64,000 nucleotides of DNA. It comes from Bryobacterales bacterium (GTDB lineage: Bacteria > Acidobacteriota > Terriglobia > Bryobacterales > UBA6623). The stretch lies in assembly GCA_963422375.2 (NCBI GenBank), contig OY729427.2:864001-928000 (forward strand), given 5' to 3'. The notes beneath the pieces were generated by a model. That model was not told the origin of the DNA. It saw only the letters and a list, made by a program, of their open reading frames with translations, and ran no database searches. The stretch's first letter is position 1. Each line of letters opens with the position of its first letter. The translations under genes were made by a program, and so were the position numbers. Below, piece after piece: positions 219-17,976 of this stretch.

Positions 219-481
219 CTAGCCGTGGAAAAAGCGAATGGAGAGGTCCTCAAAGTTTTCCGTTTCTCGTACTAAATGGATCAGAATTCTGTTTCTGAGA
301 TTATCTTCTTCTAGGACAACTCTAAGGGGATTTTCAGCCTTCGTAGACTGGAATAATCTTGCTATTGTCAGAACTTCATTTCGACGATAATCCATCTCTA
401 TCAGATTGCCACTAAGAATATAAACATGCTTCAGATCGCAGGGAAACAGCGTCTCTAAAACGATTAAATCGTGATTCAATA
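219..481 (-). pseudogene. Low-GC gene remnant interrupted by IS1595; probable 5' part at 1896-1957
   Basis: AT-rich segment; removing the IS joins an AGGA-ATG start at 1957 (MTPEEYRSRAEQ...) to this segment, but the joined frame stops after 43 codons; no family recognised. Confidence 0.35.
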
Positions 482-1887
482 GGGAATTATATATCTGAGT
501 GACTAGGCAACTTATTTGGCAAATCATCAATCCATAATTTAATTTGATATTTCTTCCGGATATCTGTTGAAAGTCTGTGGAGTTTCTTGATAGAATGGTT
601 CCAATATAGGAGGTCGTCATTGAAGAATGAGAAGCAGAAAGATCCCGGGAATTGGTTTCGTAAAGGCATCACGTTGATTGAAGTGATCGCCATGTTCCCC
701 GATGACGAATCCGCGGAAAAGTGGTTCGCCTCCGTGCGCTGGCCGGACGGTCCGGCATGCCCCCGCTGCCGCGGCTCCAGCGTGCAGTCCGGCGCGGCCC
801 ACCCTTCGATGCCGTACCGTTGCCGCGGTTGCGGCAAGCGCTTTTCCGTGCGCGCCGGCAGCGTGACGGCCGACGCCAAGCTCTGCTACCGCGTCCGGGC
901 CGTGGCCCTGTTCCTGCTGACCACCGGCCTCAAGGGCGTCTCCAGCATGAAGCTGCACCGCGACCCGGGCATCAGCCGGAAGTCGGCCCGGCACCTGGCG
1001 CACCGCATCCGCGCGTGCCGGGAGCGGGACCGGGACCTGTTCGTCGGCCCGGTGGAAGTGGACGAGACGTACGTCGGCGGCAAGGAGCGCAACAAGCACG
1101 AGAGCAAGAAGGCCCGCGCCGGGCGCGGGACCGTCGGCAAGACCCCCGTGGCGGGCGCGCGGGACCGCGCCACGAACGAAGCGGCCGCCCGGCCGCTGCC
1201 GGGCACGACCGAGGGCGACCTGCAGGGCTTCGCGCGCGGCCGGGTCGCGCCGGGCGCGCAGGTCCGCTCCGACGAGGCGGCGGCCTGCGCCGGCATGGAG
1301 GAGTTCTCGCACGAAGCCGTCAGGCACTCCGGCGGCGAGTACGTGCGCGGGACAGCGCATGCGAACGGCATCGAGTCGTTCCGGTCCCTGTTCAAGCGCG
1401 GCCTCTACGGAACCTATCACCGGATGAGCGTCCGTCATTCGGGCCGCTACCTCACGGAGTTCGCGGGACGGCGCAACGCCCGCAACTGCGACACGGCGGA
1501 ACGGATGCGGCGCATGGCGCGGGGCCCGGTCGGCCGGACGCTGACCTACCGGCAACTGGTCGGCAAGGCCGCGGTCGCGGCCCGAGCACGACCTAGCCGG
1601 TCCGCTGCGGCCTCTCTTCACGCTCGGTGCGAAGGGCGATCCGGATCCGGAATCCCGCGCCGCGACCGGTGTCCAGCCCGGACAATTCCTACCGGCAGCC
1701 GCCTTGGAAGGGGAGCCTCTCCAGTCCGTGCGCCGCGAAATCCGCTGGCCGCCGCGATTCAGATACGAACCGACCCTTCGGTACCCACCTCGGCCGCACA
1801 CCAATGACCCGAGCAAGACGGCGATGTCCCCAATCAGGGCAGTTCTAGCCGGACATGGCGTCGCCGGCACTCAGATATATAATTCCC
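482..1887 (+). mobile_element. IS1595-family insertion sequence with complete boundaries
   Basis: 20-bp perfect terminal inverted repeats GGGAATTATATATCTGAGTG (482-501) / CACTCAGATATATAATTCCC (1868-1887); identical 8-bp flanks ATTCAATA at 474-481 and 1888-1895 (target-site duplication); encloses a DDE transposase ORF. Confidence 0.95.
620..1807 (+). CDS. IS1595-family transposase, probably inactivated by missense changes and read-through; start uncertain
   Basis: Zn ribbon CPRC...CRGC, VEVDETYVGG, SDE, HxNGIESF, RYLxEF and LTYRQL motifs; several normally conserved W/L/Y positions read R/P/C; ORF runs about 80 codons past the usual LTY end. Confidence 0.9.
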   Translation: MKNEKQKDPGNWFRKGITLIEVIAMFPDDESAEKWFASVRWPDGPACPRCRGSSVQSGAAHPSMPYRCRGCGKRFSVRAGSVTADAKLCYRVRAVALFLLTTGLKGVSSMKLHRDPGISRKSARHLAHRIRACRERDRDLFVGPVEVDETYVGGKERNKHESKKARAGRGTVGKTPVAGARDRATNEAAARPLPGTTEGDLQGFARGRVAPGAQVRSDEAAACAGMEEFSHEAVRHSGGEYVRGTAHANGIESFRSLFKRGLYGTYHRMSVRHSGRYLTEFAGRRNARNCDTAERMRRMARGPVGRTLTYRQLVGKAAVAARARPSRSAAASLHARCEGRSGSGIPRRDRCPARTIPTGSRLGRGASPVRAPRNPLAAAIQIRTDPSVPTSAAHQ

Positions 1888-2118
1888 ATTCAATAACCCG
1901 TTGAAGACTGATCCTCCCCGCCTGCTCCGCGCGAGAACGATACTCTTCAGGAGTCATTCCTGTTAGGCTCGGCTCCGCCACCCACGGATTCATCGGAATC
2001 GCTTAGCGGCCTACAGAGGACTCGAGTCACAAGATCGAGTCCTTTAGGCATCGATTCCCAAGCCGCAAGGCCATGTCCGAGTAACCTGCAGGCGTCGTAG
2101 CATCGCCTCCTCGCCGCA

Positions 2119-14738: not shown

Positions 14739-15290
14739 CTAGGCCCGGCCGGACTTGATTCCAATCTCCCATTCTTGGGTCCGCGACTGCGTTTTGTCAA
14801 CGCCGCAAAGGGTTTCGACCCGACCCCCCGACCCCGGCCGGCGACGAGCCGCAAAGAAGCCGCGCAAGGCCTCGAGGCACTCCCCCGCGAGCACCCCTTC
14901 CGAGATATCCACCCTGTGATTGAGAAGATCCGAATCCGCGAGCCGGAACTTGCTGCGCACCGCGCCGAAGCGCAAGTCGCGCGCGGCGAACACCAAGCGC
15001 CGGACCCGGGCGGCGACCAGAGCGCCGGCGCACATCGCGCAGGGCTCCAGCGTCGAGTACACCGTCGCCTCGCTTAGCCACCGCTCGCCAAGGCGGCGCG
15101 CCGCCCGCCGCACGGCGACGATCTCCGCGTGTGCGGTAGGGTCGGAGTCGCGGAGCTGGCGGTTCTCGCCGCGGCCCACCACCTCGCCGGCCCGCACCAC
15201 CAAGGCGCCGACGGGCACCTCGCCCGCGCGCTCGGCGCCGAGAGCGAGATCCAAGGCCGCGCGCATGTACCGCTCGTCGTCGGACGGCAC
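14739..15290 (-). CDS. tadA: tRNA adenosine(34) deaminase
   Basis: GEVPVGA, DPTAHAE, TLEPCAMCAGA, LNH; GTG start at 15290 likely. Confidence 0.92.
   Translation of the reverse strand: MPSDDERYMRAALDLALGAERAGEVPVGALVVRAGEVVGRGENRQLRDSDPTAHAEIVAVRRAARRLGERWLSEATVYSTLEPCAMCAGALVAARVRRLVFAARDLRFGAVRSKFRLADSDLLNHRVDISEGVLAGECLEALRGFFAARRRPGSGGRVETLCGVDKTQSRTQEWEIGIKSGRA
14771..14800 (-). promoter_or_regulatory. Putative sigma70 promoter for metK-ahcY
   Basis: Minus strand TTGACA (14800-14795), 18-bp spacer, AAGAAT (14776-14771), about 120 bp upstream of metK. Confidence 0.55.
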
Positions 15291-16974: not shown

Positions 16975-17976
16975 TCAGGCCAGCGCTTGCCGGTGGCTTT
17001 CCACGCCGGCCTCGGCCAGCAGATTTCCGGCGGTTCCGTGGAGCGGGTACTCGAGGTTGTACACCACCCGCGCTATGCCCGCGTTAATGATCATCTTGGT
17101 GCAGATCAGGCACGGCGAGCAGATCGAGTACAGGGTGGCCCGGTTGACCGAGATGCCGTGGTAAGCCGCCTGCACGATCGCGTTCTCCTCCGCGTGGCTG
17201 CAAAGGCACTCGTCGAGCCGCGTCCCGCTGTCGGCGAGCTCGTTGCAGCGGGGGCAGCCGCCCTCGTTGCAGTTCGTCACGCCGCGCGGCGTGCCGTTGT
17301 AACCGGTGGAAATGATCCGCCGGTCCTTGACGACCACTGCGGCGACCTTGCGCTTCATGCAGTTGGAGCGAAGGGCCACGATGCCGGCGATCCGCATGAA
17401 GTACTCGTCCCAGCCCGGGCGCGAGGCTCCCATCATCCAGCGCCGGGCGACCTCGGTGACGGCGCCGGCGAGCGCCTCCTTGGTGCCGTCGTTGACGATG
17501 GTCTTATCCGCCTCCGCCCACGTGGCGCGCAGCTGCTGGCTGGCTGCATTCGAGCTCTCCAGCTCGCGCCGTTCCTGGTCTACGAACTCGCGGTACGAGG
17601 AAGGCGCGCGGTCACCGCCCCGCTCGAGCACGCGACGGTACCGCAGCCGGGCCGGAGCGTCGAGATGCAGCAGGCGGAACTCGCCCCACTCGCGCAAGGC
17701 CCGCACTTCGTGCGGCGAGCGGATCGAGTCGACGACGTAGTTCTGATCCGGCCGGAACTTCCGGCCCACGCGCTGGGCGAGCACGGACGGCCCGAAGTCG
17801 GCCCGCAGCCTGTTGCCCTCCGCTATGAGGTTCTCCCGCGTCGGGGAGCGGTCCCCGGCCGCGAGCTCCTCGCGAATCACGTCCGACAGGGAGTGGAACC
17901 GGAAGCCCTTCTTGCGCAGGTGCTCGGCCGCGACCGTCTTGCCCGAACCGTTGGTACCGGTCAGTCCGATAATCAT
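16975..17976 (-). CDS. P-loop kinase-like domain fused to dCMP deaminase
   Basis: MIIGLTGTNGSGKT Walker A, DSIR; C-terminal RPGWDEYF, GYNGTP, HAEENA, PCLIC. Confidence 0.92.
   Translation of the reverse strand: MIIGLTGTNGSGKTVAAEHLRKKGFRFHSLSDVIREELAAGDRSPTRENLIAEGNRLRADFGPSVLAQRVGRKFRPDQNYVVDSIRSPHEVRALREWGEFRLLHLDAPARLRYRRVLERGGDRAPSSYREFVDQERRELESSNAASQQLRATWAEADKTIVNDGTKEALAGAVTEVARRWMMGASRPGWDEYFMRIAGIVALRSNCMKRKVAAVVVKDRRIISTGYNGTPRGVTNCNEGGCPRCNELADSGTRLDECLCSHAEENAIVQAAYHGISVNRATLYSICSPCLICTKMIINAGIARVVYNLEYPLHGTAGNLLAEAGVESHRQALA

Follow-up and report, generated by a model that had tools for sequence, protein, structure and literature searches.

Shared missense alleles in an IS1595 family of a Bryobacterales genome are consistent with GC-favouring, motif-dependent gene conversion between copies

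In fungal RIP, repeats gain directional, context-dependent damage. For bacteria, the existence of GC-biased gene conversion (gBGC) and the enzyme responsible for it form an open question behind high genomic GC. Bacterial gBGC has been inferred from the GC content of genes that recombine between strains (Lassalle et al. 2015, PMC4450053). Gene conversion is also described among dead insertion sequence (IS) copies of Wolbachia wBm, which are highly similar and carry stops and frameshifts (Cordaux 2009, via PMC3196728 and PMC3205602). In paralogs of Mycobacterium tuberculosis, mostly PE/PPE/ESX genes with 7 events in IS genes, T>C changes are enriched and C>T changes depleted, and the median conversion tract is 101 bp (PMC13061034). 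As for directional repair, Vsr of E. coli and Neisseria corrects T:G to C:G within a motif (PMC2715241, PMC6116569), and MutY takes A out of G:A (PMC12606429). In the literature, covered mostly as openly accessible main texts, we found no account of conversion between IS copies in bacteria that is GC-biased and depends on a motif. The copies described here resemble the case of Lassalle et al., as set out in the parts of that paper covered, in that recombination-associated repair would favour GC and can fix deleterious changes; unlike in that case, the evidence is the way allele frequencies are distributed across paralogous IS copies within a single genome, with a neutral control class and a motif.

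The analysed stretch, referred to as the window, comprises 64,000 nucleotides of a Bryobacterales bacterium (contig OY729427.2, positions 864,001 to 928,000), whose genome (G000) has 6.0 Mb in 3 contigs and 67% GC. A complete IS1595 copy spans positions 482-1887 of the window. It is bounded by 22-bp terminal inverted repeats, the left one (482..503, plus strand) common to 88 other paired copies and the right one at 1866..1887 (minus strand), and it is flanked by an exact 8-bp target-site duplication (474..481 and 1888..1895, plus strand). The left repeat has one private C to A change, at 502. The missense-damaged transposase gene (620..1585, plus strand) is supported by Pfam domains and homolog columns; its start codon in the subfamily of the window copy (subfamily A) is TTG. 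Pfam search placed Zn_ribbon_IS1595 (PF12760) at aa 27-73 and the ISXO2-like DDE domain DDE_Tnp_IS1595 (PF12762) at aa 143-286, both above the cut-off. By its inverted repeats, 8-bp duplication, zinc ribbon and DDE domain, the element is a member of IS1595. It is likely no longer active. What we take to be the three acidic motif residues are retained in the window copy and in 78 of 89 copies, and no intact transposase with identical recent copies was found among the 89, the best of which holds 13 of 15 key residues.

The original prediction, made from the sequence alone, read several conserved transposase residues as altered by single A:T→G:C changes, and each named residue change indeed corresponds to one such substitution. 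The CGG codons at 896, 989 and 1382 (W93R, W124R and W255R) stand where homolog loci encode W in 157/158, 157/158 and 154/156 cases. The same holds for L116P (codon 965, CCG; L in 142/158 loci), M83T (866, ACG; M in 140/158), Y223C (1286, TGC; Y in 152/155), T248A (1361, GCG; T in 141/156) and L274S (1439, TCG; L in 146/155). The suspected loss of the stop codon was also borne out by the ORF end and by copy counts, with TGA at 1583 in 47 of 89 copies and CGA in 37 of 89, including the window copy, where the frame reads through to 1807 (1583..1807, plus strand). We took polarity from 158 distinct homolog loci of other genomes or metagenomes, among which the closest named ones were Bryobacterales MAGs, and treated a homolog-conserved residue as ancestral. 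Since the ancestral A/T allele persists in sister copies at every named site, this polarity now rests on sequence comparison. Further changes in the window copy are Q120R (978), Q295R (1503), V188A and V205A; at homolog-polarised sites, 15 of its changes run toward GC and 2 toward AT, a load that ties for the highest among the 84 copies.

A GC-rich centre and AT-rich ends had been noted along with these changes; the pattern is present, but it is mainly ancestral. The AT-rich left end and gene start (504..700, plus strand; GC 0.33-0.46) are subfamily-specific with little exchange between subfamilies, and AT-richness at the right end is mild (GC 0.55). In 20 loci of the closest homologous genes, the upstream 150 bp likewise have a GC of 0.39-0.48, so the AT-rich left end is ancestral. 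Gene GC is 0.713 in the window copy and 0.61-0.71 in those homologs, and because 15 GC-ward changes in ~960 bp add less than 2 points of GC, the GC-rich middle is mostly old.

In the host genome, ends of the window element's family number 114 on the left and 124 on the right, and 89 copies could be paired from them. After exclusion of 4 divergent copies and one duplicate, 84 copies were used for frequency counts, and three subfamilies were distinguished (B, 51 copies; C, 22; A, 11, including the window copy). Nearest sister copies differ by at least 1.3% (range 1.3-10%), one double-counted pair aside. As in wBm, non-functional copies share damage by conversion; unlike the highly similar wBm copies with their stops and frameshifts, as the cited accounts summarise them, these diverged copies have mostly open frames and GC-directional damage. 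The target duplication is exact in 43 of 88 paired copies. In 33 of 88 it is mismatched at no fewer than 3 of 8 bases, with no reciprocal partners for these copies, and adjacent deletions, nesting or lost partners are possible causes.

The copies are recombinant mosaics formed by non-reciprocal exchange, that is, by gene conversion. Fixed differences between subfamilies B and C number 33 in 482-721 versus 2 in 722-1561, 22 C/G polymorphisms segregate within B and most of them in C too, and B copies contain subfamily-A tracts (markers 1030-1484 and 893-943). The four-gamete fraction is ~0.8 beyond 30 bp. Sites 1-3 bp apart are almost fully linked, and by 7-10 bp linkage has dropped to background. 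Observed r2 in the first four distance bins was 0.33, 0.11, 0.03 and 0.06, compared with 0.24, 0.13, 0.06 and 0.04 for simulated 100-bp tracts among 100 copies and 0.34, 0.07, 0.03 and 0.03 for a 4-bp patch model. We therefore rejected tiny conversion patches as a demonstrated feature, because 100-bp tracts fit the linkage decay about equally; this length matches the median tract given for M. tuberculosis in the text covered (PMC13061034). Reciprocal crossovers were rejected as well, since 33 orphan copies gave 0 exact and 2 near target-duplication matches, not above the null. Chromosomal proximity did not predict similarity among the copies of this genome.

The named changes of the window copy occur in 9-75 of 84 sister copies. 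They lie in a recombining core (850..1585, plus strand) with shared A:T→G:C alleles at 854, 867, 896, 966, 978, 989, 1182, 1233, 1287, 1361, 1382, 1440, 1503 and 1583, the derived allele being present in 9-75 of 74-84 covered copies per site. Derived alleles are linked to their neighbours at 1381/1382 and 1440-1444, with 26 of ~30 1382C alleles on 1381C, and this co-travel with adjacent markers indicates single origins. The 6 private alleles of the window copy, by comparison, are all G:C→A:T. We then compared rare alleles (1-2 copies) with common ones, counting polarised nonsynonymous alleles as toward GC : toward AT. In the window family the spectrum was 35:27 for rare and 22:1 for common alleles (p=5e-4); in a second IS1595 family (98 copies, polarised with 106 homologs) it was 35:42 and 32:0, and in a third IS family (53 copies, 102 homologs) 66:54 and 32:1. 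This third family is exemplified by L193:280-1899 (G000:C1:54779-56398); its transposase has no Pfam hit, and one homolog is labelled ISNCY family.

Pooled over the three families, the spectrum was 136:123 for rare and 86:2 for common alleles. Since rare alleles are balanced and common ones GC-ward, the bias lies in the spread of alleles and not in their origin. Taken as common over rare, GC-ward alleles stand at 86/136 and AT-ward alleles at 2/123, with GC-neutral alleles intermediate at 20/63, a class that founder differences may inflate. The ~235 neutral copies of the three families act as a population in one chromosome, and this three-class pattern is the one expected of gBGC, as is mutation without strong GC bias, private alleles implying an equilibrium GC of 0.31-0.57. 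The pattern holds when only columns at least 90% conserved are used (58 GC-ward and 2 AT-ward common alleles). By type, T>C was rare in 84 and common in 59 of 456 possible changes, C>T in 104 and 2 of 597, T>G in 74 and 29 of 503, and C>A in 40 and 0 of 813; transversions make up 29 of the 88 common GC-ward alleles. A likelihood fit that omits the GC-neutral class rises to a rough bias B of ~16-24. The estimate including that class had not converged and was discarded, and unpolarised spectra of short repeat families were set aside as uninterpretable. In the window family, private AT-ward alleles fell from 5.3 per 1000 sites at the left end to 2.05 in the core (p=2e-6), with no significant change in GC-ward ones (p=0.31), a contrast that favours a bias tied to recombination. 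The second IS1595 family differs, both classes of private allele declining centrewards, which means that its contrast between end and core is not specific to GC.

These spectra bear on a past A:T→G:C mutator episode, in which loaded founders would have been spread by trans-mobilisation and unbiased recombination of old alleles. Several damaging alleles are fixed in subfamily A, which means that damaged copies were multiplied, and old lone relics lean GC-ward, both as such an episode would predict. We nevertheless regard it as distinctly improbable: four old divergent copies have balanced private changes (27/704 A/T sites, 72/1905 G/C sites), the same pattern recurs in three families, mutS and mutL have open frames, and the motif-dependent rise in frequency described below would be left unexplained. 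The mismatch-repair mutator of the original prediction likewise found no support, as mutS (878-aa frame) and mutL (631-aa frame) are open, with motifs that we take to be intact, and private mutations are balanced or AT-biased.

The spread of alleles depends on sequence context. T to C alleles have become common at 42 of the 93 sites that match (C/G)T(A/G/T)G and at 17 of the 361 that do not, most strongly in CTGG (20 of 30 sites), and at TC-followed sites it is common in only 3 of 151. Rare T to C alleles show little preference (13/93 motif sites versus 69/361 others). A second context, (C/G)x(A/T), has common A to C and G to C alleles at 41 of 345 sites versus 8 of 963 others; both motifs were defined post hoc. 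Palindromic methylation-site motifs (CCNGG, GCNGC) were rejected because they do not unify the pattern. For M. tuberculosis paralogs, the text covered describes no motif (PMC13061034), in contrast to the present genome. In core genes, synonymous T is rarer in CYGG than in CYGC, with frequencies of 0.071 versus 0.150 in this genome (885 ORFs from half of the non-repeat segments) and 0.144 versus 0.240 in 20 relatives' loci, so the bias probably exists across the genus in a weak form. CTGG is not depleted in non-repeat DNA of this genome or its relatives (maximum-order tetramer odds 1.06).

Such context dependence, TAC to TGC included, would also be expected if motif-targeted mutagenesis, by Vsr acting on replication errors or by a RIP-like adenine deaminase, had rewritten the same sites independently across copies. 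The same motif footprint at synonymous sites genome-wide counts in its favour, as does the report that overexpressing Vsr is mutagenic in E. coli (PMC2715241). We consider this explanation improbable, since rare alleles show little motif preference, derived alleles are linked to adjacent markers (1382C on 1381C), A to C and G to C alleles have spread as well, and 7 of 30 CTGG sites show no change or a change of intermediate class. The three PF00383 matches in the genome resemble TadA, RibD and dCMP deaminase, and none is unusual. The RIP-like adenine deamination originally proposed is not supported, given the same shared, marker-linked alleles, the balanced private ones and the transversions. 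Compared with fungal RIP, the direction here is opposite, copies have alleles in common instead of acquiring them independently, the changes extend to transversions, and no dedicated enzyme was found. Two genes 2 kb apart on the minus strand of the window, at 14985-15284 and 17059-17412, are TadA-like and dCMP-deaminase-like, the latter with a below-cut-off likeness to an anti-phage dCTP deaminase.

Open frames were also found for recA, nth and recT, for one mutY-like and two UDG-family genes, and for an orphan vsr. No nucS was found in this genome (96% complete). The M. tuberculosis authors, in the text covered, suggest reduced NucS repair (PMC13061034). The Vsr protein matches E. coli Vsr at E=1e-29, and vsr is present here and in 30 of 31 genus genomes; G041 is the genome where it was not found. 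There is no C5-methyltransferase beside vsr in the 3.2-kb locus, and the nearest PF00145 match lies ~123 kb off. The genome has 18 PF00145 matches, several broken, and an equal-scoring C5-methyltransferase gene at three places (L186, L187, L188), adjoining a nuclease-like gene in L186. The recT-family recombinase gene, an open frame, lies at L391 (G000:C2:2463719-2464261); RecT-type annealases could aid exchange between diverged copies.

Among the three processes put forward originally, GC-biased conversion fits best, and neither a mutator nor RIP-like mutagenesis was upheld. Our preferred reading, to which we give slightly better than even credence, is that the element is a damaged IS1595 copy whose alleles were spread by copy-to-copy gene conversion with motif-dependent, GC-favouring repair. 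Two paired copies would form heteroduplex DNA, in which Vsr and MutY would both be expected to favour G:C: the orphan Vsr would probably turn a T:G in (C/G)T(A/G/T)G into C:G, and MutY may remove the A of A:G or A:C mismatches. With ~100 copies, each variant would be retested repeatedly, so that a weak genome-wide bias could be amplified family-wide. The outcome would be a family-wide load of W to R, L to P, Q to R and Y to C, while most stop-creating, AT-ward changes would be erased and frames would stay open. The repair resembles that of E. coli and Neisseria Vsr in taking T:G to C:G in a motif; unlike E. coli Vsr as described in the parts covered (PMC2715241, PMC6116569), the motif here, led by CTGG, is (C/G)T(A/G/T)G and not CTWGG, vsr is an orphan, and the transversions need another enzyme. 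A more specific version, in which orphan Vsr and a second activity favouring C at (C/G)x(A/T) drive one-way heteroduplex resolution and sweep crippling missense alleles through IS families, is a tentative proposal that we hold to be possible but less than probable.

Against the preferred reading stand the unbiased marker transfer between subfamily A and B+C, the GC lean of lone relics, the post hoc definition of the motif, the orphan state of vsr, and vsr-bearing relatives without such loads. In 60 loci of five relatives, whose families are younger or differently structured, no W to R or L to P loads were found. Diagnostic markers between A and B+C were transferred at 36/720 for GC-adding and 32/722 for GC-removing alleles (p=0.62), under a definition that leaves out sites already spread. 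With a looser definition, mean frequencies into B+C were 0.195 versus 0.056, so ascertainment affects the outcome.

Lone or two-copy IS relics carry 54 GC-ward and 17 AT-ward changes, a lean that exceeds rare alleles (p=4e-4) and falls below common alleles (p=3e-5), with weak motif enrichment (9/24, p=0.06). The expectation that single-copy pseudogenes would show equal bias, named in advance as refuting repeat targeting, was thus only partly realised: the relics lean GC-ward, but more weakly than the common alleles of the families. The bias is therefore not strictly repeat-specific; lone relics may be what remains of former families, or all old neutral DNA may be subject to a host-level bias. 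Outside this count, the ratio was 7:10 for two semi-isolated relics and 7:9 for a relic in three copies.

The relics, compared with a ratio of 58:86 at homolog loci from other genomes, count in favour of unbiased copy conversion combined with a host-level force, either GC selection or biased inter-strain recombination, that filters changes and is amplified by copy number. Balanced mutation with a core GC3 of 0.857 needs some genome-wide fixation bias, and the unbiased subfamily marker transfer also speaks for this explanation. We think it rather unlikely, as the gap between CTGG (20/30) and TC-followed sites (3/151) points to an enzyme and not to selection on GC content. Across 451 conserved columns of an IS-interrupted single-copy gene, 2 changes were GC-ward and 7 were AT-ward, although this gene may be young. 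L324, a control gene without any deviation in 199 columns, was left out because the IS is apparently upstream of its start, and its broken paralogs (49:77) were set aside because divergence confounds them.

A sequencing or assembly artefact, through miscalls at methylated motifs or collapsed repeats, is highly improbable. CTGG/CCGG does resemble known methylation-linked miscall sites, and the runs have no recorded library type. Nine neighbouring core genes, however, have only 2 GC-ward and 8 AT-ward genome-specific changes in 1627 conserved columns, with no W to R or L to P among them. Contigs from runs X1 and X5 (two studies) match both element flanks with no difference, and an X3 contig matches 850-914 exactly, including a private allele at 884; one of these three runs may be the source sample.

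If our preferred reading is correct, these families offer a rare view of GC-biased gene conversion within a bacterium, in a system that supplies a testable motif and a candidate enzyme, and IS families can go extinct with no stop codons, their copies still being annotated as intact. The Vsr-driven version, if true, would explain mechanistically how gBGC arises in bacteria and provide a self-scaling path to transposon extinction that grows stronger with copy number. Multi-copy repeats occupy ~519 kb (8.7%) of the genome, and a mosaic linkage pattern was seen in most of the long families. In addition, IS1595 copies of the relatives G008 and G015 (L242-L287) share A to C alleles (K to Q, M to L, M to R) in (C/G)A(A/T), ~9 of 13 by eye, a hint that those genomes too undergo the transversion part of the process.
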